Source of the DNA: Lingula anatina
Taxonomy: Eukaryota; Animalia; Brachiopoda
Length of the DNA: 64,000 nucleotides
Direction of reading: 5' to 3'
NCBI GenBank assembly: GCA_051362555.1
Contig: CM120641.1
Location: forward strand, 16,554,001-16,618,000
The notes under the pieces are model-generated. The model was not told the DNA's origin and did no database searches. It worked only from the letters and a program-made list of their open reading frames with translations. Of the stretch, positions 142 to 20,300 are shown in pieces. Position numbers and translations under genes: made by a program. Positions within the stretch are counted from its first letter, which is position 1. Every line of letters starts with the position of its first letter.

Positions 142-3100
142 ATGGTGGACATGGTGCCTCCCAGCAATGTGGAGTGGTGCTGGGACAGTGGGGAGGACTC
201 AGACGTGGATGAAGGGGTATAAATTTTCGGTACTTTTGTAGTATACCCCCCCACCCTGTAACTTTCTGTAACTTTCACTTTTCAAACAGTTTTTTACATT
301 TTCTTGTTCATCTATGTCAAAGCTGTTGAAATAAAATCTTTTTTAATTACCTGTGGACTTTTTATTGGTTTTAATCACGTTTAATCCAGCCCATTGAAAT
401 ACAATGTTAGAATCTTCAATTTACACCCGCAGTCAATAACTTGCCGCGTTTTCGTTGGCTAACTCTAAGGTAATTTTATGTGAACAAGTAGCTCATAATA
501 ATTTCATAGAGGAAGTCCAAGTATACAATGTATCAATCCTATGTTCACATAAAATAAGGTAGAGTTAGCCAACTAAAACGCGGCAAGTTATTGACTGCGG
601 GTGCATTGTAAATTTTCACGTTGTATTTCAAAGGGGTGGATTAAACGTGATTAAAACTAATAAAAAGACCACAGGTAATTACAAAAAAATTTTATTTCAA
701 CAGCTTTGACATAGGTGAAAAAGACAATTTAAAAAAATGTTTGAAAAATGAAAGTTTCAGGAAGTTACAGGGTGGGGGGGTATACTACAAAAGTACCAAA
801 TTTTCTGCTCCCAGCAGTTAACATTTACATTGACCTTTGTTTTCAGTATACACACGTGATTAGATATATGAATGTTTTTTTGTGACACTTGTTAAGTGTG
901 ATGCAACTAACTTTCTTTAAGCATGGAATTTTTATCGTATTTATATTTTTACATTTAACATTGTTATATTAAAAAACAATTTTATAAGCCCAGGGAATTC
1001 AATGCACATGCAGCTTGGTTGAATTGATAATCATTTTTGGCAGACTTGTTAATACCCTTTGTGTCATGTTATCAATACATGAATTTTTGTTGTGTGTTTG
1101 CAGGATGCAGGAGAGGTGAAGAAAATCATAGTTGGAATATGTGCAATGAAGAAAAAATCACACTCCAAACCAATGAGGGAAATTATTGAAAGATTGAAAA
1201 GATTTGAATACATAGAAATACTGATATTTGATGAGCAAGTTATTTTGAATGAGGCTGTGGAGAATTGGCCCCTTTGTGACTGTCTCATTTCTTTCTACTC
1301 CTCTGGCTTCCCACTGGACAAGGCAGTAGCCTATGAGAAACTACGCAAACCTTTTGTGTCCAATGATTTAAGCATGCAGTATGATATACAAGACAGGTAA
1401 TATACACTAAAATCAAAGTAAACGATGTGACGGTTTTGGTTGTTTCTGCTTGCATTTTATAAGTGAGTAAGGTTTTTCTGTGAGTTTGCTGCCATGGTGT
1501 CATACAAATTTGCATTTTGCAGAGCTGTTTAAGATGATGTATATATTATATCTCATGCTTGCATGGTGAATGAGATTTTAAAATCTTGTAGTCAGATAGA
1601 TTTCAACAAATTACCTCATGTTGAGGAAATTTTAAACTATTTAATATCTGTACTAACTGAAAGCATAATAGTAAAAACTTTTGTTCTATTAAGACTTCAT
1701 CAGTCACACTGATGTCATGAGACAGTGTACATAGAGACCACTCTGGCAAGAACTGCTCACTATAACATTGTCCCAGATGCTAGACAGGTTGTGCCTACCC
1801 CTGTCCCTGTTCCATGAAAGTCTCTGGGCCCAAATGTAAAGAGGCTCCTTTAACCCTCGCTTGAACCATGTCACAGTCCAAAAATGTCCATATTGTCCAA
1901 ACTGATGGAATGATTGTGTACCTCAACATCTGGAACAGTGTTGAAGTGAGCAGTTCTCACCACATTGTTTACTATACACTTTCTCTGGACAGTGTGACTG
2001 GAGTTCCAGGTGTAAGGATGAATGCTTTACAGGTATGCTTTCAGTTAATGTAGAAATTGGAAAGTTTTAAATTTCCTCACTGTGATTAACACTACTGCAC
2101 AGATCAATTTCCATTAGAAATTACATTATGCTATTATTCCAACAAAAAGATTTTTTTGTGTTGTATTTTGTTTTTATTTCAATTATATGATACCCTCTGT
2201 CACACTCCTAGCACCCTCTAAGATGGGTAATTTTTTTGTGTGATAATGATCAGTTTTTTTTCTTTTGCATCCATCCTTGAGTATATCCATACAAATTCCA
2301 GGTTTAAGATATTGGTATTTCTAACTATTTCACTACATTAGATACAAACAACTGCTTATTTGTTTTTAGGTTCCCTCACAGCTAACCATTTATTTGTTTG
2401 CTTTGATAATGATTATGCAATAATATGCAATTATATAATTTGGAGTTTTTACCAATTTTGTTTCCCAGTTTCATGATTTTAACAAACATGGAGAAACACG
2501 CAGTATTTATGAAATATTACCTTTTTTGTGGTGTTGAAAACTTTTCAGTAAGTCATTTAATACAAGATTAGTGAAGTTTTCTAGCTGGCTACAGTAAGTC
2601 ATGTAATATTAATCTCAGTGATTTTGCAGTAGCTGTTTAAATGCCACTCGGATTTGCTTTAATTCACATTATAATTTTGCTACCTGGTTTTGTTTATTTT
2701 TTCATAGTGTGGCCAATTTTATGTAAATTCTGCTGAGCTGCATTTTCCTTGGTTTACTCATACAGGGCTAGGAATTTTGACCAGCTCATTAGCCAGATGT
2801 ATATTTTAATGAAATTTTTAAAAAATTATCCTAGCAGCAAAAAGCTTGGAAGTTACTGGTAATGGATATATATATATAAAGAAACTATAAGCAGATTAGA
2901 TTATTGGCAAATATATGGCTAGTGAAAAAGCAAATTGATTCCAACCCCTGTAAAACAATGACATTATCTGATATTTCTGTTGCTTTCCTTACATGTTCTT
3001 TTCCATGCAGGCGGGCTGTGCATGAGATAATGTACAGAGCTGGCATACCAATGCTCCCCTATGCTGTCCTGGACAGAGATTCTGGGGACCCAACCAGTAA

Positions 3101-6100
3101 GTTGTTGTTTTGCTTTTCTCTTCTCCAGGCGAGCTGTACATGAACTTCTGTCCATAGAAGGTATCCCCCAGCCTAGATATGCTGTGCTGGACAGAGATTG
3201 TGGGGACCCAAAGAGTGAGTGTGGCTAGAAATGGGACATGGGATATATTATGTATTATATATGAGACAGCAGGGATATTAACAGGCTCACTAAAGCATGG
3301 CTATTGTTGCTGCCAGCTGGTTTGAATTTAATGAATAAACCAGTAGTCTAACCACATTGGTGTAAAACAACGTAAAAAGATTGATTATATCATTTAAATC
3401 TTTTCAGTAGTCTGCTTTTTTGAAAAACTTTTTGCGTTGTTTTCAGGAATCGTTACTAACTATTACAATAACAACAAGTAATATTTGAAATACTACTTGA
3501 AATTAGAAGGTTTTCTCTTGATTGTGTTTCCCTTTATCTGTCCTTAATCTGCCAACTTAATTGGTTTATGTTGGTGATGGTATTCCTAATTTATTGTTGA
3601 TCTATTTGATGTTGGTGTATAAACATATTGTGTTGAGAAGGATCCTGGCAGTATGTTAGGAGACACCCTTGCTACATGATAATATGAAAAAGAGAGAATG
3701 TTAGATTATTTTAAGTTAACAAAAAAGGTGAAGAAGATTGTTTTGAGGATATAAATTGGAAAAAAACTAGCAGCAAGTTGACTATCAGATTGAATACTTG
3801 ATAGTGCTCGTTACTGCTCATTGCTTTAAGCTATGGAGCTGTGGTTTGCTTTTGCTTGTGCAATTAAACTACTGTATTCATAATTGGATAAATTGGTTAA
3901 CAAAAAGTGATATAAATTCCAAATCCAATTCTTGGTTAAGCATGCCTATTGTTGGCTTATTAATATGCAATTTTCTACACTGATCAGAACAGCATAAAAT
4001 TAGACTAGATAACTGTGATGTTCCTTCTCTGGGCACAAATCTGATACTTTTCATATCAATAATCTGAGTTGTTATTCCAGAGTGCCTGTTGATAGAGGGG
4101 GATGACCAGATAGAGGTCAATGGGATTGTATTTCAAAAGCCATTTGTTGAGAAGCCTGTCTCTGCTGAGGACCACAATGTGTACATCTACTACCCCACCA
4201 GTGCAGGAGGGGGCAGCCAGAGGCTCTTCAGAAAGGTCAGTGGTTGATATCACACTGACTGAGTTTGGCCACTGTCTTTGATTAACTAAGTGATTTCATT
4301 TATTTAAGTTAAAACCTTAAGAGTGGTGTCTGTCATTTTAGCATGGTCAGCATAAAGTTGATGTAGATATGAGGAAATATTTTTAGATTGCTTATGTCTA
4401 ATTATCCAGGCACATCGTAGGGCCACAGTAGCTAACTTATACATTATTTAAAAAGGAAAATACATAATGATATCATGTATGTACTCCATAGATGCTTTAT
4501 GATAAAGACATTGAAAATGCTCTTTTGGTTTCTTTTCAGATTGGAAGTCGAAGTAGCGTTTATTCTCCTGTAAATAAAGTGCGTAAAACAGGCTCTTATA
4601 TCTATGAACAGTTTATGCCTACAGATGGAACAGACATCAAGGTATATAGAGCTTTATATAGATTCAGCACATATAAGAGTCACAGTGTTAAACAAAATGA
4701 TTGAAAAAAACTTCTAAATTGGATATCCCCTAGCATCGTTAATGGTTTGATATTAGAACATATAAATACATTTTTACCACAGACTATTATTGAATTAAAT
4801 CTGAAAACTGTTTTATGCTAAATTATGTTTGATTGCAGGAAGACAGTTTTCTTCCTATTCTCTGGTTGAGAAAATTGCTCTTTTTTGGCAACTGTAGACT
4901 TTGACCTTATTGTCCTAATGTTGATGAATAATCCCTGCAATTGGTTATCCCAGGTTTACACTCTTGGTCCAGACTATGCCCATGCAGAGGCCAGGAAGTC
5001 TCCAGCTTTAGATGGGAAAGTGGAGAGAGATAAAGATGGGAAGGAAGTCAGATATCCCATCTTACTGAGTGCCAAGGAGAAACTCATAGCTAGGAAAGTC
5101 TGTCTAGCATTTAAGGTAGAAGCTGCGGAGACTTGTTTTATCAAATTGATGTGTGTTTTTAAGGGATATCTCTAACAAATAAAAGATTTTAATATTGTAA
5201 AATCTTAGTGTTAAATGTGTGCATATGTGATAATTTTAAACAGATGTTGACTTCTCTTTGATTTCTTTCTTTGAAAAGTTGTTATGTATAATACTCATAT
5301 GCAGTGACACAAAACACATTTGCTGAACACGGGAATGAATAAAACCAATTGACCACACCTTTATGTAGAGAGGAATACATTTGTTTTCAGCAAATGGTTT
5401 GTGGGTTTGATCTCCTGAGAGCTAATGGGGAGTGCTATGTCTGTGATGTTAATGGGTTCAGCTTTGTGAAGACATCTATGAAATATTATGATGACTGTGC
5501 AAAAATTCTAGGGTAAGTAGAAAAATCATAAAGCATTTATATGATCAGATCAATTAAATGTATTTCAGGAAGTAGGCTCCAGTGAGCTTTCTGGCAACAA
5601 TGTAATAATTTTTTGTTTATTTTAATAAATGGTCTTAGTTAGTTTTTCAAAGAACATCTTGAAAGCATTAAATTTGGAAGTAGCTGGTCAGAAGATTATT
5701 TTAATTGACAGAATAATTCATCTGTTTTTCCAGCAATATGATAATCCGTCACTTTGCCCCACAGTTGTCTATTCCCATCTACTACCAGCCTGAGGATCCT
5801 CCCATTGTGCCCACTACATGTGGAACTATGTGAGTCAGTGGGAACAGATGACAAGTGTTTTACAGATTGGGTTTTACATAGTTTTCATTATAAAAGACCA
5901 TACTAAAAAAACATGAGAATTAGGGAAAATAAGTTTGATTTAATATTTAAAGGAACCCACCTCCCAATATCTTACTTATGTAAAATGCAAGTTTTTAAAA
6001 TGTGATTTTATATGGTAATTATCAGGATGGAGTTGAGATGTGTGATAGCTGTGATAAGACATGGAGACAGGACACCAAAGCAAAAGATGAAGATGGAGGC

Positions 6101-9100
6101 CAAACATAAGAGGTACATTGTATCTTTGTTTTAAGAATTTTTAGTATTGTTTTAACATATACATGTTTCAATTCATAAAGTGGAATTGAATCTCTTTCTC
6201 TTAAGATTCTACTCTTTTGCACTTCAAGGTTATATAATATTAAGTTTCTTAAATAGTTGCATTTGAACAGGTAAATCAGATTCAGTGATAAAGAATTTTA
6301 TCAGTTCTGTGTGACCAGTGGCAATAATAATGATATGTTTTTCAGGTTCTTTGACTTATTTGAGAAGTACGATGGATTTAAGACAGGACAGTTGAAACTG
6401 AAGCGTCCAAGGCAGCTACAAGAGATCTTGGACATTGCCAGGGCCCTGTTATTGGAGATAGAGGCCCACCCTGCCAACCCTGAAGTGGAGGAGAAAAAGT
6501 CCAAGTTAGAGCAACTGAAGGCTGTGCTGGAAATGTAAGAAATATATCTGAAGTGATTGTAGAAATATCAAAATTCAGCAAAAATGTTCAGACTTATATA
6601 GTACGTGTATATTGCTAGAGCTGACTGCTTTCAATGAAATATTCAATGTGGTAAGGCATAATGTGTCCATGCAAAAAAACTACGATGAAGAAGGTAGGAT
6701 AGCTTTAACAAAGTGCAGCCATTATTATATATCAATTATATTTTTCACTTTCCCTCAAACAGGTATGGCCATTTCTCAGGGATCAACAGGAAGGTCCAGC
6801 TCAAGTACCAGCCTCATGGGGCTCCTAAGAAGTCCTCAGATGAGGTGTCAGATGGAGAGCTCTCCAGTGAGTATAGCATAAGAACAGATTTAACATGATG
6901 AAGTGGCTTCCTTGGTTTTGTTCTGGCATACAGTGTATTCATGCAAATTGGAATTCCTGTGTTATTAATGTAGCATGAAAATTTGAAGGTCTTGACCAAA
7001 AGGGTGAGAACAAAATGCAAAAGTGCCATTGTGAATTGGATCATAATCTATCTTCCTTATTTTTCTTTACAATTAAAATATAATTGAAGAGAAAGGCAAC
7101 CTTTAAAAGGTTTATATCAGTTAAAAGCTGCATTAATTTTTAGCAAGTATTTTACATATGCACTGTATGATTTGAATGGAGAGATAAATGAACAAATATA
7201 TAAATAAATGGATGGAGTATTGGTAAGTTTAAAATGAGTTGAGATGCCTTTGCATGCACAGGCCATGCTGCAGACCCAGGTCCCTCTCTGGTGCTGATCC
7301 TGAAGTGGGGAGGAGAACTGACCCCAGCAGGGAAGATGCAGGCTGAGGAGCTGGGCAAGGCTTTCAGGTGCATGTATCCTGGTGGAGAAGGTAAGTCTGC
7401 ATGGGTTGATCTTAAAACAGCACTCTTTTTACCTGAATTGTTTTAAGATCAGATATTATGAAAATCACATTTTCCCTTGTCCTTTTTATGTACAGACACA
7501 GATGTGTCTGTTATGTACAGACACAGATGTGTCTGTACATATAGCCATCATCTGCGTCTGTCGTTGTCGTCGCCGTCGTCGCCGTCGCCGTGCACTTTTA
7601 CCGATAACACGATAAGTGGAAAACCATTTTACATTTTGACTTGAAACTTACAGAACTGATGAATATGCATAATACGCAGGTCAAGTTCGAAAATCAGCAT
7701 GATCGGGTCACTTTTAGGGAATTTATGCTGTTTTTTCACTTTTTTCAGCATATATGCAGCACCGATAACACGATAAGTGGAAAACCATTTTACCTTTTGA
7801 CTTGAAACTTACAGAACTGATGAATATTCATAATACGCAGGTCAAGTTCAAAAATCAGCATGATCGGGTCACTTGTAGGGAATTTTAGTGTTTTTTCACT
7901 TTTTTCAGCATATATGCAGCACCGATAACACGATAAGTGGAAAACCATTTTACCTTTTGTCTTGAAACTTACAGAACTGATGAATATTCATAATACGCAG
8001 GTCAAGTTTGAAAAACAGCATGATCGGGTCACTTTTAGGGAATTTATGCTGTTTTTTCACTATTTTCAATATAAATGCAACACTGATAACACAATATAAG
8101 AAAAACGGATTGGCCAATTGTAATTATACTCACAGGAGTGGTCAATCTTACTAAGACGCAGGTTGAGTTCAAAAATCAGCATAATCGGGCCATCATTTTA
8201 TACTGTTTTTACATTATACTGTTTTATGTCTCCTTGATCTAAAGGTTCAATACGATGCCGAGAGGAGAGCAATAAAGTGACAAACACAAGTATGATGTTC
8301 GAAACTTGGCCGATGCCGGCCGCTTTTATTGTGAATCCTTATACTAAAATGAATTAAATTTTGATGTTAAAATTAATTAATTGTGACAGTGCCAAAATAC
8401 GTAATTTTTTACGCCTGAAAAGACTATTTTATATATAATTCCCAAAGAACATAGTGCAGACGTTTTAATTTGTGGGGTTGCAAAGAGGCCATAACCTTGG
8501 GATCGCAGAGGCCAAGGAAAACCCCACAAAGGACAAAGGAGCCTGCTGATAAGGACAGAAAGTTTCCAGATGAGTAAGTAGTGCGTAATGAGTAGAGGTC
8601 GGAAATGTAAAGACACAAAACGTGCCGCTCACCTAGGCGAAGCTAGGCAGACGAAAATATGACAAAAATAAGGCATGAAAAGTTATGCCACTCAACCTGA
8701 AAACCAGGTCGGAAAAGTAAAGACACAAAACGTGCCACTCACTCTGACGAAGCAGAGCGGAATATAAAGACACAAAACGTGCCACTCACCTAGGCGTAGC
8801 TAGGCGGACAAAAATATTGCAAAAATAAGGCATGAAAAATTATGCCACTCAACCTGGAAACCAGGTCGGAAAAGTAAAGACACAAAACGTGCCACTCACT
8901 CTGACGAAGCAGAGCGGAATATAAAGACACAAAACGTGCCACTCACCTAGGCGTAGCTAGGCGGACAAAAATATTACAAAAATAAGGCATGAAAAAATAC
9001 GCCACTCAACCTGAAAACCAGGTCGGAAAAGTAAAGACACAAAACGTGCCACTCACTCTGACGAAGCAGAGCGGAATATAAAGACACAAAACGTGCCACT

Positions 9101-11298
9101 CACCTAGGCGTAGCTAGGCGGACAAAAATATTACAAAAATAAGGCATGAAAAAATATGCCACTCAACCTGAAAACCAGGTCGGAAAAGTAAAGACACAAA
9201 ACGTGCCACTCACTCTGACGGAGCAGAGCGGAATATAAAGACACAAAACGTGCCACTCACCTAGGCGTAGCTAGGCGGACAAAAATATTACAAAAATAAG
9301 GCATGAAAAATTATGCCACGTCGTTGCCGACTGGAGTAGGATAGAGGATAAAAGGAAGGAAAATTACCGGTGGTCCTGAAAAGGTCGGGACCTGACAAAA
9401 GGGGGAGATGCGCCTATGGGCCTGAAAAGGACATGTGATGAGGGTGACAATAGATATACAACAAGAAATCTCAAGGAAGTGATGTAGATATGGACTAAGA
9501 GCTATGGATAAAGGAAATTCTATGGGCCTGAAAAGGACACGTGTTGAAGGACAATTTAGGAAAGCGAAACGCGAAGCCGGGAGGCCTTCCTAATGATGGC
9601 GCCCCGTAGACTACGATAAAGTTTATACTGGCCCACATCCGAGAGATGCACCCCGTCTGGCTTGATGTGGAGCCGGTTAACTCTCCGCAGACCTACGTTC
9701 TTCCAAAAGGAAATGAATGGATTTCTTAGGGGCAAGTCTGCTAGGAGAATATTGAGCTGATCTACTTGGTCATTAAACGAAGGGTGAGGGGGACGTAGCC
9801 TGTGGTGAACTTGGTTCACCACCACATGTGAAACACCAAATACGTCGTGAAAACGACGGGCTAACTCCTCAATATCCTTACAGAGGTTTGAGGGAGAAAC
9901 GTTACGGTCGGACAGGTCATTAGAACCAATGATAAGAACGACCAGGTCGGGCCGTACCCGGCGAAGGATCCCCAAATCGTACTTGACCAGTTTAGGGACC
10001 GTGCGGCCGCCTATCCCGTGCCAGTGCACAGAATTGGGGAAACCAAAATCTTTCGCCGCCCGTACGTCCCGACCCTGGTCGAGAAATGAACGGAGTCTAT
10101 GAACAAATGAATGACCAATAACTAGAACTGCCATGGTGATCGTAAGTCTGTGAGTCAAAAACTAGCAAATTATATTGAAAAAGAGAAAAAAACTTACTTG
10201 TTAGCTGATCAAAATCGTACTGAGGCGAATTGAGCAGTGATCCGTTGATTGTTCTCTTGCGACTGTCGTGCGTGAGAGCAAAGTGAGAAAGAATACTATT
10301 GTACATTTCGTTAAACGCGACGGCGCGTACCTTGTGGAACACACCTGACCTAGTTCAACCTGATTGGGCAAAAATTAGTAACGAACCAAATACTCTGATT
10401 GGATAAGAAAGATTGGCCAATCACAGCCCATTGCCGATGCAGCACTAAATCCACGATTCTATGTGCAGCATTGAATCCGAGGCTCGTCAGTTCATGCAGC
10501 ACTCAATCCGAGGTTTGTACAAGTATGGCAAAATTACAATGCGAATCCCGTCGGAACTAGGTTACAATCCGTCGCCATAAAACAACGTTTGACTCAGCCG
10601 CCAAACTTCCCTTTTTCACATTTCCTCAGATTCAATTATTAGGCATGTTAACAGTCTCATTATTTAACTAATAAGATGCCTAAAAGTGTTTGTTTGATAT
10701 TTCCTGTATCTTTACAACATTGTTAGTTGATTATGTAAAAAACATGGTAAACTTGTTATCATGTATTGTGTAATAAAGTGTCAAAAATGGAAATAAACTC
10801 ATATCATTGCAATTTGTCATATTCAATCATCCACTATGTTCAGAATCTTAGATGGAGGAAATTGGACATTTAACACTGTTCTATTGATATTTTCCCCATC
10901 TCATCAATTTTATTAGTTCGTCATATAAAAATGGCAGTTAATTGTTAATTTTGTTTTATGTTAAAAAAGTGTTAAAAATGGAAATAAACCCAATTCAGAA
11001 AAGTGCTGTCTTGTTTACATTTTGGCATTTTCAAGGTGTGACTTTGAAGTTCCATGGGCCTGAAGACTTTTGCTAGTCACATTTTCTGAATATCTGTGAT
11101 ACAAATATTTTATAATTAAAAATTGATGGTCATTAAGCTGTTAAACATTATGTAATATTGCATCAAAATTTGAAGAAACCCCTATTTTGGGCACTGCTTC
11201 CATGATACCATTTAAGGAAAATCATGTCACTTACTGTTCTCAAACTTACAGGAAAGAAACATGGGACTAAAATACAGCTTCAGTAGGCAATGCAGTCT

Positions 11299-11342
<44 letters not shown>

Positions 11343-14300
11343 AGTTAAACAGTTTTTTGTGAAAATTTAATTTTTCACATATTGGCATTTTCAAGGTGTG
11401 ACTTTAAAGTTCCATGATACTGAAGACTTTTGCTTGTCACATTTTCTGAATGTCTATGTTACTAATATTTTATTAATAACATTTGATTGTCATTATGCTG
11501 TTAAACATTATGTAATGTTGCATCAAAATTTGAAGAAACCCCTATTTTGTGCACTGCTCCTATGATGACCATTTAAGGGAAATCATGTCACTTACTGTTC
11601 TCAAACTTACAGGAAAGAAACATGGGTCTAACATACAGCTTCAATAGGCAACGCAGTCTGTTTGGTAAAATTTTCTGGCAATTTAACAGTTTTTTGTGAA
11701 AATTTAATTTTTCACTTATTTGCATCTTTATTTCACTTTTCTCAGCATATATGCAGCACCGATAACACGATATGTGAAATACCATTTTACCTTTTGGCTT
11801 GAAACTTACAGAACTGATGAATATTCATAATACGCAGGTCAAGTTTGAAAAACAGCATGATAGAGCCACTTTTATGGAAGTTATGCTGTTTTTTCATTTT
11901 TTTAGCATATATACAACACTGATAATACAATATAAGAAAAACAGATAGGCAAATTGTCATTTTACTCACAAGAGTGGTCAATCTTACTAAAACATAGGTT
12001 GAGTATGAAAATCAGCATAATCGGTCCATTATTTTAGAAGTTATGCTTTTTTTTCACATTTCCTCAGATTCAATTCTTAGGCATGTTAATAGTCTCATTA
12101 TTGAACTAATAAGATACATAAAAGTGTTTGTTTGACATTTCCTGCATCTTTACAACATTGTCAGTTGATTATGTAAAAATGATGGTAAATTTGTTATCAT
12201 GTATTGTGTGATGAAGTGTCAAAACTGGAAATAAACTCATATCATTGCAATTTGTCATATTCAATCATCCACTATGTTCAGAATCTTAGATGGAGGAAAT
12301 TGGACATTTAACACTGTTCTATTGATATTTTCCCCATCTCATCAATTTTATTAGTTCGTCATATAAAAATGGCAGTTAATTGTTAATTTTGTTTTATGTT
12401 AAAAAAGTGTTAAAAATGGAAATAAACCCATTTCAGAAAAGTGCTGTCTTGTTTACATTTTGGCATTTTCAAGATGTGACTTTGAAGTTCCATGGTCCTG
12501 AAGACCTTTGCTAGTCACATTTTTCTGAATATCCATGATACTAATATTTTATTATTAAAAATTGATGGTCATTATGCTGTTAAACATTATGTAATATTGC
12601 ATCAAAATTTGAAGAAACCCCTATTTTGGGCACTGTTCCCATGATGATCATTTAAGGAAAATCATATCACTCACTGTTCTCAAACTTACAGGAAAGAAAC
12701 ATGGGACTAAAATATAGCTTCAGTAGGCAATGCAGTCTGTTTGGTAAATTTTTCTGGCAATTAAACAGTTTTTTGTGAAATTTTAATTATTCATTTATTG
12801 GCATTTTCAAGGTGTGACTTAGAACCTCCACGGGCTTGAAGACCTTTGCTAGTCACATTTTCTGAATATCCATGATACTAATATTTTATTATTAAAAATT
12901 GATGGTCATTATGCTGTTAAACATTATGTAATGTTGCATCAAAATAGAAGAAAACAATTTTTGGTGTTGCTGCCATGATGACCATTATGGGAAAATCATG
13001 TTACTTACGACTCAATCTTTCAAAAAAAGTTGGAAAAGCAGTCTAATTGGCTTCTTTTTCTGGAATTTATACATTTTAGTGAAATATTCATTATTATCTT
13101 TTTGGCATATTCATTGTGGGACTCAGAACTCCCATGGACATGAAGCCAAATGGTAATCAAATTTTCTACATGTCCTTGCTATTCATAGTCAATAATAAAA
13201 AATTGGTGATCATTATTCTATAAATTATTATGTAATGTTACATCAAAATTGACAAAAATATTTTTGTACTGCTTCTGCAAACATTATGGAAAGAAAACTG
13301 TGTTACTTATTATTATGTTTAACTTACAAGTATGATTTTTAGGATTGGCATGCAGTTCAAATTAGAAAGCCAGCTCAATTGGGTTATCATTTATTATTGA
13401 ATTTATGCAATTTTGTGTGAAATTTTCATTTTTCTCATTCTGGCTCTTTCTAATTGTAAATTTGAACTCTGATGGACCTGAAGCCTTATGCTTTTACTTT
13501 CGTCGTTGTTACCTGTTCTGCATAATTAAAATTTGATATTGACTGTGCAGTTAAACATAATGTACTATTGCATCAGAATTGGCAGTCTCCTATTTTTGTG
13601 CATTATTGTTTTGTGCTTTTCTTAAGCTGTGTCTTATGGGACAAATTTGTGTGGTCAGTCTGTAAATTCCCCTTGGGTATTCACTAGGCTAAGTTTAGTG
13701 CTATAAACTCATTTGCCTGATTAAGTGGCCATTAAATGAGATTTCATAAATCACACTTGTTGATATTTCCCTGTAAACTCCCAAAGGTTAAGCTCTCTGC
13801 TAGATAACAGTGTGCATAATAAGGAAGCACTGAATAGCAGCTTCATTAGATTATATTTTTGTTGTTTTCTTTTTAATTTCTTCTCCAACACTGGCATTTT
13901 TAAGATGTGACTTTCCCATCCACCTGAGGCTCTGCACAATTTCTGTATTTCCACGTAAGCAGTTGTATTGGTATTCATGTCTTTAAACACTAGTAATATT
14001 ATTTTATGCACTGTCATCATTTTTCTTATATTGGGACTTTCATCATGTGAATTTTAACTCTCATGGTCATGAAACTATAATCTTATTGAAGGGGTGGATT
14101 GAGACCATCTTCTGGGTCTCCTGGAAGACAGTTAGATTTTTTATATTGATGGGTATCTATTTTTTTCTTTTGGAAGACCATCAAAATGGAAGATGGATCA
14201 ATAAAGATACTTTAGAATACTGTCAAAAATATTTCTGGATCTGCTCCTGTTATTGACCATGTTACCTGTTGTGCATAATGAAAAATCAGTGTTGACTGAC

Positions 14301-17300
14301 TGCTATTATAAGCATTATTTATTGTTGCATCAAAATTGACAAAATGACCTCTTTTGCATCTTTTTTTTTCTGTTTTTTGTCTGTACATTTGACAGCTTTG
14401 CTGCCTTGTTTTTTTTCAAAAGTGAATCAGCATTAAAATATTTGTAATTTATAAAACCAAACCCTGTGTGGTACTAAAATCAGATAGTGCTAAAATTATT
14501 TATAAGTCCAAAAGTGAGGAGGTTCTCTGAGAATTTAGCACAGTATTGAGATGGCCTTTTAACTTTTGGAATTCAGGTGACTATGGTAACACCCCTGGCC
14601 TGGGCTTTCTTAGACTACACAGCACATTTAGACATGATCTAAAGATCTATGCGTCAGATGAAGGCAGAGTACAAATGACAGCAGCTGCTTTTACTAAGGT
14701 TTGTTGTAGTCATAGATTTTGAATGTGATCATCAGGATGAGGTCACATTACATGTGGGATCTGTCCTGTTATTTAGGTATTTAAATGTCTCAGGAACCAT
14801 GAAGAATCATAAAGCCTGTATGACCTTATCAATGAAAATGACAAAAGGTCCAAAAGATTATCAGTTGCAAAGACTTTAGAGTACAATGTGAAATAATTCT
14901 TTCAGGGACTTCTTGCCTTGGAGGGGGAGTTGGCCCCAGTACTGGTACAGATGGTGAAGAGTGCAGACACCAATGGTCTGCTGGATGAGGACAGAGAAGC
15001 AGCTAAATATCAAAACAAGTAAATTGAAGAGTGATATTTTTGAAAATAACCATAAAATATTAAATGGATTTAATAGCACAGATAGACATATTTAGAAATA
15101 GCCACTGCAGACTTTCAATGTGTTATTTGAGTCAAATCAAGGATCAAATGAATTTTATAATTTATGTTTCAAGTTTGAGATTAAATTGATGAAGTGCTTT
15201 TGTTAACTACAGGTTAATTTGTCACAATTATTGAGTCTGGAATCTAATGCTGTCTCAATGTACAGTTATAGTAGTTGAAGAACTGAACTGAACACATTAC
15301 TTTCAGAATCAAAGCCAAGCTAAAGCAGATTTTAAATGAAGACAAAGATTTTGAAGAAGAAGACATACAGCAAGTAAGTTTTTCAACCTCTGACAAAGAT
15401 TGTTTTATCACAGAATAATGTTTCAGAACACATTTTGAAGCCTCAGAATTTTGTGAAAAATCTTTATTTTTTCTGTGGAAAAAGATGGGATATGTTGTAT
15501 GTTTTGTACTTTTTAATTTTACCACAGTATGTGGTTCTTCAATTCATTATTAGTACCACCAGTGTATATGCTGGCGGTACTCATGGTTTTAGTCCCGACC
15601 CGTCTCGTACAGCTCCGCTGGCTCCTGCGGCTCCGCCGGCTCCGCAGTCGGGCGCTGGAAACAAGTCACCGTTAACGCTTCTCCTCCTAGACCGCCAGGA
15701 CCTGTGTCTCCATCTCTTGGATTTAGGTCATGTATAATCTCAACTTGAACACCCTGGTTTTTTTGTCTCTGTCTGTGCATTAGCCTGGGCGTGACACTTG
15801 TTGAAACGCACCCTTGTCAAAATTTTTGAAAATTCAAGGCTAAATATCTCCCAAACCAAAGGAATTATGGGAAAAATTACTACAGAAGTCTGACCGAAAG
15901 TCATATGTGGAGATTCCAAATATGCCCTTGGATTTGACTTTTGACCTTTTTCTATGTTAAATATTCCAAAATTAGCAGAGATATGCCCATAATTACTATT
16001 GAACTTGAATAGGAAGTCATATACTGGTAATCTAACTGTGACCTTGAAATTGACCTTTGACCTACTTTTCATGATGAACTGCACTTTGAAGTTTTCTGAT
16101 CTTTATATCTCCAAAACTGGCAGAGATACACCCATAGTTACTATTGAACTTGAGTAGGAAGTTATATAAAAGTAATCTTACTGTGACCTTTAAATTGACC
16201 TTTGACCTACTTTTCACCATGAACTGAACTTTGCAAATTTTCTAGCCCTTATATCTCCAAAACTGGCAAAGATACACCCATAGTTACTATTGAACTTTAA
16301 TAGGAAGTTATATACTGGTAACCTAACTGTGACCTTTAAATTGACCTTTGACCTACTTTTCACAATGAACTGAACTTTGCAAATTTTCCAGCCCTTATAT
16401 CTCCAAAACTGGCAGAGATACACCCATAATTACTGTTGAACTTGAATAGGAAGTCATACACTGGCATTCTTATTGTGACCTTGAAATTGACCTTTGACCT
16501 ACTTTTCAACATGAACTGAACTTTGCATGTTTCCTGGCCTTCATATCTCCAACATTGGCAAAGAAATGCCCATAGCTACTATTAATCTCATATAGGAAGT
16601 CATATACTGTGACCTTGAAATTGACCTTTGACCTACTTTTTTACCACAAACTGAACTCTGCATATTTTCTTGCCCTTCATATCTTCAAAACAAGCAGAGA
16701 TCTGCTCAGTGTTGTCCCTAGGTTTTCTCTTTTGTCAGCATACCGGCATATGCAATACTGATAATGCATTTCAAGGAAAACCAATAGGCCTATTGTCTAG
16801 AAAATCACAGGAATGATCAGTGTTAGGAAAATACAGGTCAATTTGAACATCTCCTTGACTGGACCATTTTAACTGTTATGTTTTTTCTATTTTTTTTTTT
16901 TTTTTTGCATATTTTGAGAACTCTTGTTTATTGCATTTTATAGAGCTTGTCAAGCTCAAGACTGGTGGTGGTGTCCAATTTTTTTTTTTTTTTTTTTTTG
17001 GGGGGGGGGGAGGGGGGGTCCATACAAATGCGCTTACTCCAGCTGGTGGTACAATATCCAGAGGCGGTATCGCCTCTCTGATCCTCTAGTTAAACCATTT
17101 AAAGTTATGTGAAAATTTGAAATTGATGATAACCTCATTGTTGTGCCAGTTATGTGAGGACAGCCAGTCCATCAGGACAGCTCTCATGTTTATCAAGAAC
17201 CCGCGGCAGATGTGTAAGAGGATCCATGCCCTCATCCAGAAACTGACGGGAAGGATAAAGCAGCTAAAGGCAGACCCTAGGACAAGAGGTGAACAAAAAT

Positions 17301-20300
17301 TATAGTAAAATCAGAGAAAAAAAAAAGATAAATGCTGCACCCTTTTTATGCTCTATTATTAAATTTAACCATGAACCATGTAATGACCATCAATCAATAA
17401 ATAAACTGAGCATCCTTTTGGTTCAGGGAAGACGTTATACCACAATGAGACTTGGGAGCTAATGCAGAGGAGGTGGGGCAAACTGGAGAGAGACTTCCAT
17501 CAGAGGAGTGGTTTGTTTGACATCAGCAAATTACCAGATATTTATGACTGTATTAAGTATGATCTCCAGCACAACCAGGAGGCACTGCAGTTTGATAACA
17601 CAGAGGAGCTGTACGTGTGTTCCAAGGCTATGGCTGACTTGATCATACCACAGGTAATGATTTTATTTCTCGGTTACTTATTAATACCACTGGTAATGAC
17701 TTCATCTTACCACAGGTAACAAGTTTTTTTTTGTTGATGACTAGATTATTCCAAAGGTAAGGATGTGATTTGTCAATAACTTTATCGCTCCACAGGTAAC
17801 ACTTTTTATGTCAGTAACTTGGTCTATATTTCACTCTTCTTATTTTCATCTCTAGGAAAAAGATGACAATAAGACAGGAATCTAAATTATGCTGTTAGTA
17901 CCCAAAAAAACATTACTTTCAAATTTTGTGTTTTTATAATTAATTAAGGGGAAAGTTTTTTTTTTAATGTTCAGGAGTATGGCCTTTCTAAAGAAGACAA
18001 GCTGTGCATTGGCACCAGTATCAGCAGTCCCCTCCTGAAGAAAATTTACTCTGATCTTCAGAGTAATCTCGAGGAAGATTTCACAAGGCTGGATTCAAGG
18101 TTAATAAACGATCAGCTTGATCTTTACTTAGAAAATTGCATATTGGTTTAATTTCCCATAATATGCTTAATATGATTTTTGCTTGCTTAGTAAAATAAAT
18201 CATTGTTGGTAATTTTTGAAAAAATCTCTAAATATATGTTAACACTAATCTCCTTATCAATATTCTTAGTTGATAGATATTTTGCTTTTACTTTTTGCTC
18301 CATTATACCTAGAACATTCTAGATAATGTACTGTGATATATTGTGTATATAGACATATGTGTATTGTCTTTAGTGTGTGTACTGTCATGTGTCATAGGGC
18401 CATGAACCACGACCACAGCTGTGGTGATTTCCAAAAGAAAAATATGCTGGTCAAATGTCATTAGAAACCTTTTGATATTTATTGTCAAAAATGATTTTTT
18501 GCTTATGTTTGTTATAACCCTTGCAATCTTTAACAGTTCACACAAAAGTTGCATCTTTGTCAGTGCTGTGTAGAGATTCCAAAAATTTATAAGTAGAATC
18601 TTAAACAAGGTGTCAAAGTTTATAAGTAGAATCTTAAACATGGTGTCAAAGTGAACAGTATTCCCATAGGACATTTAGACTGTTAACCCTTTGTTACTTG
18701 TCCTCATGTGTTCCTTACTTTGTATATGAACCTCTTGAAAGGTTAAACCCCACCACTTACAGAATTATTTTATGTTTTGTTTGTATGGAAAAATACATCT
18801 GTATATTTTCACACTTTGTGCATGGTAGTATATTTGATAGAATTGGCTACAACAAGGGACCTTTGACAAGAAAAGAGACTTCTGTCAACATATTTATATA
18901 GATTTGGGTTAAGACTTGCTTCTCTAATTTTTGGCTGACACTTCTCTTAGTTTTGATGTTTTTGTAGGTATTGCAAAGGAGTAGAGTCGCCCTACCTTCA
19001 TGTGCGAACACGCCTTTACTTCACAAGCGAAAGTCATATACATTCACTCGTCAATGTGCTTCGTTATGGTGGACTGATCGATGTAAGTTTGGGTTGTAGT
19101 GTAGCTGTATATAATCTAACTTGGGCCTCTGTTCTTCTCTTTGAGCATGACTGTAATTGTGATTGCCTTCTAGGTATTGCAAGGGGGTGTCCACGCCTTA
19201 CCGCCATGTTCGAACACGGCTGTACTTCACAAGTGAAAGTCACATCCACTCGCTCCTGAATGTAATTAGATATGGGGGACTTCTGGATGTAAGTGGAGAC
19301 GCATGGAGGAAATTGCTTTTACTACTTCCTAACAATGCACACAGTTTAACTCTTCTTAGGCTGCTTGTGTGAAACAGTTTGTATGTTTGTTTGTGTGACT
19401 TTCTTGATAACAAAATACTAAAATAAAACATTTCATAGTACGGTACTAATTAAAAATAGCATTAGAATTCTAACAATCTGGAAATTAAATTTTCAATTTT
19501 TTCTCTTGTTTCGGTGATCACCATGACCCTTGCCCGAGGCTTTTGTGGTGGATATGTGGATCACATTGCAGATTTATTTAATGACAAAAACATTTGTTTT
19601 GAAGATTCAAAGGTCATGGTGACTACTTCCATTGTCTCTTAAAGTGCATTTCAACACATATATAGAATGGGTTTACAGCGACACAGAAAGTGGTGGATCC
19701 AATATCTGTGTATGAAATGACAAAATGTTAAAAGATTTTCATCTTGCTATCTCACTATATCAGCTCTAAAATACTTAGGTCAGGCAAAAAAAAAAAAAAA
19801 AAAAAAAAAGGATCCACCACTCAATTAATATCCTGATTTAGTTGTTTTTTTTATTGTTGATGATTATGTGTTGTTTTGTCATCCTTTGTCTACCAAAAGA
19901 GATTTGAAATAGTTATGTATTGCCTTGTAACTGAGTCATTTTTTAAAACTGACATGCTTTATTCAGTGTGTAATGTGCATAAATAGCTAGCATCATGGCC
20001 TGGTATCTTGTTCATATTTTATTGTTCAGAATTTTGCATTGTTGTACATCTGCAGATGTTAGATTTAAGAAATAATATCAATAGAAATCAAGTATAGACT
20101 GTTTTTGTACTAACATTCCTGTCTCCACAGCTAACTGATGATTATAAAAGATGTTTTAGAGTAGGGGGTAGTGCAGCCCTTACCTTTGTTGTAATTTGTG
20201 ATCACTTCCCTTTCCTCTTCCCTCAGCGCACACACACTTCAGCGTGCCCCTCGTTTGTCAAATTTTTAAACAAGTTCACACACAACTTCCTAAATAGTGT

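Follow-up and report, generated by a model that had tools for sequence, protein, structure and literature searches.

The stretch of DNA analyzed here (the window, 64,000 nucleotides) comes from the brachiopod, or lamp shell, Lingula anatina. The peptide encoded by exon 2 in the window matches RefSeq Lingula anatina PPIP5K at 99% over 97 amino acids, the next ordinary matches standing at 70 to 75%, and the RefSeq Lingula PPIP5K protein spans positions 142 to 31086. The gene encodes an enzyme of inositol-pyrophosphate signaling with both domains that mark the PPIP5K/Vip1 family, an N-terminal ATP-grasp kinase (PF18086) and a histidine acid phosphatase domain (PF00328). The kinase domain aligns with human PPIP5K2 (PDB 3t54) at an E value of 1e-173, and the presence of the phosphatase domain as well resembles the bifunctional kinase-pyrophosphatases PPIP5K, Vip1, and Asp1 (S. 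pombe Asp1, PDB 8e1h). Along the path of RefSeq isoform X1 there are 28 introns of 138 to 7186 nt, as estimated from match offsets. The longest intron of the gene, of 7.2 kb (7393 to 14575), contains tandem repeat units and an apparent repetitive-element insertion, as judged by eye. At position 1254 the window has G (Ala76), yet most reads of all eight RNA runs have C (Pro76), and RefSeq isoform X6 carries Ala where the other seven proteins carry Pro; this difference is likely allelic.

Exons 3a and 3b and their use in RNA

The kinase domain contains two adjoining homologous exons, here called 3a and 3b, between constitutive exons 2 and 4. The features of this region are as follows.

1103 to 1396, + strand: exon 2, constitutive, N-terminal part of the kinase, ending inside the Arg123 codon (sequence frames and junction reads)
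3011 to 3096, + strand: exon 3a, the minor, more derived copy, with MLPY and Leu at 138 (RefSeq P0123 and P0122; four reads of 3096>4081 in RNA runs X2 and X7)
3097 to 3128, + strand: 32-nt spacer, consisting of the 3a donor GTAAGT, followed directly by an adenine-free U/C-rich tract and the AG of the 3b acceptor (sequence)
3129 to 3214, + strand: exon 3b, the major, ancestral-like copy, with QPRY and Pro138, equivalent to human Pro149 and Asp1 Pro138 (53 reads of 1396>3129 and 54 reads of 3214>4081)
4081 to 4235, + strand: exon 4, constitutive, downstream of 3a/3b (sequence frames and junction reads)

Exons 3a and 3b are each 86 nt long and in the same phase, share 62 of 86 nucleotides and 18 of 28 amino acids, and match each other by tblastn at E=1.3e-10; the same search found no third copy in the window. 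Their splice flanks are CATGCAG and GTAAGT for 3a and CTCCAG and GTGAGT for 3b, in line with the initial annotation of two homologous 86-nt exons with identical phases and good splice sites. The spacer, too, is as that annotation had quoted it, 32 nt long with adenines only at 3099 and 3100, in the 3a donor, and at 3127, in the terminal AG. Both exons complete the codon of Arg123, a phosphate-binding residue, as AGG, and the reading frame runs from exon 2 into exon 4 through either one by itself. Inclusion of both exons, skipping of both, or retention of the spacer each leads to a frameshift and a stop, as had been predicted for the joining of the two. The pair has the traits by which mutually exclusive exons are recognized in PMC5740500: adjoining exons that are homologous, close in length, alike in frame, and free of stops. 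An uncollapsed allele or an assembly artifact was ruled out, because 24 of the 86 bases and the flanks differ between the copies, and both donors are spliced in reads. The 3' halves of the two exons are nearly identical (3060 to 3093 versus 3178 to 3211, two mismatches in 34 nt), with a P value of 0.002 on all sites and of 0.05 on amino-acid-identical codons alone after allowing for the scan; this near-identity possibly reflects gene conversion or, alternatively, a splicing element common to both.

The 3a/3b event is already annotated computationally in RefSeq with both isoforms. Six of the eight proteins in the RefSeq Lingula cluster use 3b, two (P0123 and P0122) use 3a, and none uses both. 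RNA reads were taken from eight of the nine runs carrying the same species label (run X6 was left out), at 6 to 30% of each run's reads, and listing of a splice joint required three reads in one run. The joint from exon 2 to 3b, 1396>3129, was supported by 6, 3, 3, 14, 22, 2, 3, and 0 reads in the eight runs (sum, 53), and that from 3b to exon 4, 3214>4081, by 9, 0, 1, 10, 19, 8, 5, and 2 reads (sum, 54). Four reads supported the joint from 3a to exon 4, 3096>4081, namely three in run X2 (three start places; longest short side, 61 nt) and one in run X7 (46 nt), and each run in the remaining group fell under the listing threshold for this joint. These are not misplaced 3b reads, because short sides of 61 and 46 nt reach the divergent middle of 3a. 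Exon 3b is thus the dominant form in the eight runs and 3a a minor one, at about 7% (4 of 58 listed downstream joints; 95% interval, 2 to 17%). Three read-supported variants were found in 3b, all of them synonymous. Use of 3a appeared to vary by sample (3 of 13 in run X2 versus 0 of 28 in X1 and X3 combined; P value, 0.027), but sample-specific use was not relied on, since this contrast was chosen after the data had been seen.

The initial annotation had proposed either/or use of the two exons and had named four joints by which it could be checked. Three of these (1396>3129, 3096>4081, and 3214>4081) are present in the reads; the fourth, 1396>3011, was not listed in any of the eight runs, for which three reads in one run were needed, so that the complete 2-3a-4 message rests on the RefSeq models together with the downstream joint. 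The either/or claim itself is borne out by the RefSeq isoforms and by junction reads from both donors to exon 4. In the terms of PMC5740500, reads bridge the upstream exon to 3b (53 reads) and 3a to the downstream exon (four reads, two of the eight runs), while a joint uniting the two exons, 3096>3129, was not listed in any of the eight runs, a result of little power with just four reads from the 3a donor. Such joining shifts the frame anyway, and decay of the frameshifted messages would hide these joints in any case.

Collectively, we read 3a and 3b as tandem-duplicated alternative exons of PPIP5K, with 3b the main and 3a the minor form, and we put the probability of this reading at about 0.8. 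Their use is likely kept exclusive by a 32-nt spacer too short to accommodate U1 and U2 simultaneously, with the frameshift as a predicted backstop.

Position 138, constraint on 3a, and the spread of the pair

Exon 3b keeps the PRY motif (QPRY), and 3a has LPY instead (MLPY), as initially annotated. The residue that differs, Pro in 3b and Leu in 3a at position 138, corresponds to human Pro149 and aligns with index 109 of the Asp1 chain, which is Asp1 Pro138 (the numbering offset was verified on Arg123, Val195, Lys197, and His204). In fission yeast Asp1, Pro138 makes a van der Waals contact with adenine N6 (PMC9765450), and human P149 is described as the start of the second ATP-grasp sheet (PMC4063336). 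The initial annotation's claim that this proline lies near the ATP site is therefore supported by the Asp1 contact and by the alignment of 3b Pro138 with it. Of 150 representative homologues, 135 aligned across the segment and 15 were dropped. Position 138 is Pro in 121 of the 135 and Leu in two; position 139 is Arg in 84 and Pro in 14, and position 130 is Leu in 131 and Met in two. Two annelid proteins read QPRY, like 3b, which indicates that 3b is ancestral-like and 3a derived.

The proline swap in 3a may alter enzyme activity. Human PPIP5K2 is reported to have an ATP Km of 20 to 40 uM and to be insensitive to physiological ATP/ADP changes (PMC3564036), and with so low a Km a small shift would be silent and only a very large one would matter. 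The two forms may differ meaningfully in ATP affinity, as had been proposed, but the low Km of the human enzyme weakens this idea. For the 3a kinase domain, an AlphaFold model made from one sequence had a mean pLDDT of 35 and was discarded.

The check on conservation of both exons, which the initial annotation had also put forward, came out negative: no 3a-like segment was found among the 135 aligned representatives, among the invertebrate matches, or in the annotated isoform sets of nine other species. These nine sets, from the nemertean Lineus, Ciona, six insects, and one further source, are protein annotations of 9 to 28 proteins each, with clusters not always complete, and contain no substitution-type variant in the catalytic core. 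Lingula was the only brachiopod identified among the named matches, and a word-based search with the 3a region, which returned the Lingula cluster alone from two candidates, is uninformative on conservation. Unlike the ancient duplicated exons conserved across phyla in PMC9741552, the segment has a single version in the annotated isoforms of the nine other species, and the 3a/3b pair is apparently lineage-restricted. In the isoforms of Nasonia, Aphidius, Lineus, and the P0289 cluster, small optional insertions recur just after the exon 3 segment, which suggests a splice-variable loop. A Drosophila counterpart of the exon pair was looked for and not found in the literature on the fly gene name, nor did the insect isoform sets examined contain one.

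It is possible, though on balance unlikely, that 3a is a decaying duplicate, spliced at a low and unregulated level and yielding an inconsequential kinase with weak or no activity. Its use at only about 7%, its loss of a proline kept in most homologues, and its absence from the isoform sets of other animals are all in keeping with such decay. Yet the frame, length, and both splice sites of 3a are intact although dS between the copies is near 0.9 (dN/dS, 0.24/0.91), and 3a is included in RefSeq models and retains YAVLDRD and GIP. Its acceptor has an AG-free zone of 80 nt and a branch-like site at -20 that matches five of seven positions of the branch-point consensus TACTAAC. The age of the duplication bears on both sides: when 3a was simulated as neutral, the probability that it would change at no more than 10 residues, gain no stop, and keep its splice sites fell from 0.35 to 0.003 over 0.15 to 0.45 substitutions per site, so that neutral decay is compatible with a young duplication (0.35 at 0.15) and unlikely from 0.3 substitutions per site upward (P value, at most 0.04). 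These values weakly suggest that the 3a protein is under constraint.

The spacer and the choice between exons

For the reading of 3a and 3b as exclusive alternatives, the position of the 3b branch point is central. Between 10 and 60 nt upstream of the 3b acceptor, adenines occur only in the 3a donor (3099 and 3100) and in exon 3a itself, and the best candidates match the consensus poorly.

3093 to 3100, + strand: best predicted branch adenines for the 3b acceptor, A3100 (-29, in the 3a donor) and A3093 (-36, in exon 3a), each matching four of seven positions of TACTAAC

The steric argument of the initial annotation thus stands as far as the adenines go, all of which lie at or before the 3a donor apart from the terminal AG; its placement of the branch point is a prediction, and the branch base may be other than an adenine. 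Donor-to-branch distances below a limit of roughly 50 nt give rise to steric interference (PMC5740500, PMC7969005), and any branch point satisfies this limit here because the entire spacer is 32 nt. In alpha-tropomyosin exons 2/3 (cited in PMC4165533), OGDH exons 4a/4b (PMC7969005), and 57 human clusters (9%) that are candidates for steric interference (PMC5740500), such distances likewise bar joint assembly of U1 and U2. The branch point in known steric cases, however, lies 25 to 46 nt downstream of the donor, whereas the candidate branch of the Lingula kinase pair overlaps or precedes it. The C. elegans exons egl-15 5B/5A and let-2 9/10, with spacers of 14 and 30 nt that PMC4165533 reports as never seen excised, are like the Lingula pair in being adjoining alternatives whose spacer is below minimal intron size, so that they cannot be joined. 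They belong to different genes and another phylum, and in the five C. elegans short-spacer clusters described there the exons are 3n in length, whereas Lingula 3a and 3b are 3n+2; in Lingula a frameshift therefore backs up the steric block.

We propose that the 3b branch point would fall within the 3a donor or the closing bases of exon 3a. Binding of U1 at that donor would then block 3b, and U2 on the branch site would block 3a, the two competing for the same bases, while nonsense-mediated decay would clear stray messages with both exons or neither. In this scheme the duplication would be lineage-restricted, with 3b having kept the ancestral QPRY. At the hinge that links the two ATP-grasp lobes, exon 3a would have exchanged the proline that contacts adenine, giving a kinase with altered, probably weaker, nucleotide handling.

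That exclusivity is only apparent, with 3a and 3b joinable, the frameshifted message destroyed, and the short spacer incidental, is improbable. Joining of 86 and 86 nt does give a frameshift and an early stop, and joining reads are reported for 83 of 377 frameshifting human clusters (PMC5740500), but a 32-nt intron would lie far under the minimum of 138 nt among the gene's 28 other introns and under the donor-to-branch limit, and the comparably short C. elegans spacers have never been seen excised. Control of the choice by an RNA hairpin merits very little credence. In the lowest-energy fold, the pyrimidine tract of 3b base-pairs with exon 3a at its 3' end and the loop contains the 3a donor, but this fold is not significant (z = -1.09; 25 of 200 shuffles fold as well).

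A second exon pair and the meaning of both

All 29 exon peptides were scanned against the window, which revealed one further clear duplicated exon and one weak match (E value, 0.026). The clear case is an either/or pair in the phosphatase domain that is new in this analysis.

18968 to 19082, + strand: copy a, 115 nt, phosphatase domain (RefSeq models: P0127, isoform X2)
19083 to 19173, + strand: 91-nt spacer; best branch-like site ATCTAAC, A19119, five of seven, intron base 37 (sequence)
19174 to 19288, + strand: copy b, 115 nt, phosphatase domain (used by seven of eight RefSeq proteins)

The copies share 87 of 115 nucleotides and differ in residue at 6 of 38 codons, and with a dN/dS of 0.11/1.76 their purifying signal is stronger than that of 3a/3b. 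Both copies keep two residues that fall in this segment, the counterparts of the catalytic histidine and of human Arg837, a deafness site (PMC5891075). With its 91-nt spacer and candidate branch at intron base 37, the pair fits the layout of alpha-tropomyosin and OGDH. No counterpart was found in the isoform sets of nine other animals (protein annotations). Copy a has Leu before HVRTR, where most homologues have Arg. An optional insert of 50 residues, starting with KGLLDLEGELTPILVQMVK, in the catalytic core of Lineus P0305 (near position 539) looks like a copy of the phosphatase exon that follows it and is absent in 4 of the 15 other isoforms.

Splice variants of human PPIP5K2 are described as affecting a disordered region (PMC5891075), whereas the substitution-type exons of Lingula sit inside catalytic domains, an arrangement seen in Lingula alone among ten isoform sets. 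Literature on PPIP5K or Lingula with mutually exclusive exons, and on PPIP5K exon duplication, contained nothing on the 3a/3b event by title or abstract opening. PPIP5K is not mentioned in the main text of PMC5740500 or PMC9741552; their supplements could list the event, as could the MetazExp database, which mentions Lingula (PMC8728262).

The splicing mechanism, steric exclusion with a frameshift, is well known, and 3a/3b is a real, familiar kind of either/or splicing. Because the mechanism is familiar, the isoforms are in RefSeq, 3a is rare, and the event is apparently lineage-restricted, the general impact would be limited unless the kinetics differ greatly. The pair is nevertheless a compact test case for a branch point overlapping a competing donor, and 3a is a natural, directly assayable replacement of an ATP-pocket proline that hardly varies in this well-studied signaling kinase. 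Together, the kinase and phosphatase pairs suggest that splicing controls each half of a bifunctional enzyme. A bolder view, which we consider very doubtful, is that both opposing active sites are splice-switchable, yielding up to four enzymes that differ in their balance of making versus breaking InsP8, and that 3a raises the ATP Km. If true, the proline-less 3a would make an ATP sensor of a kinase that is normally insulated from energy status, in certain tissues or when oxygen is low.
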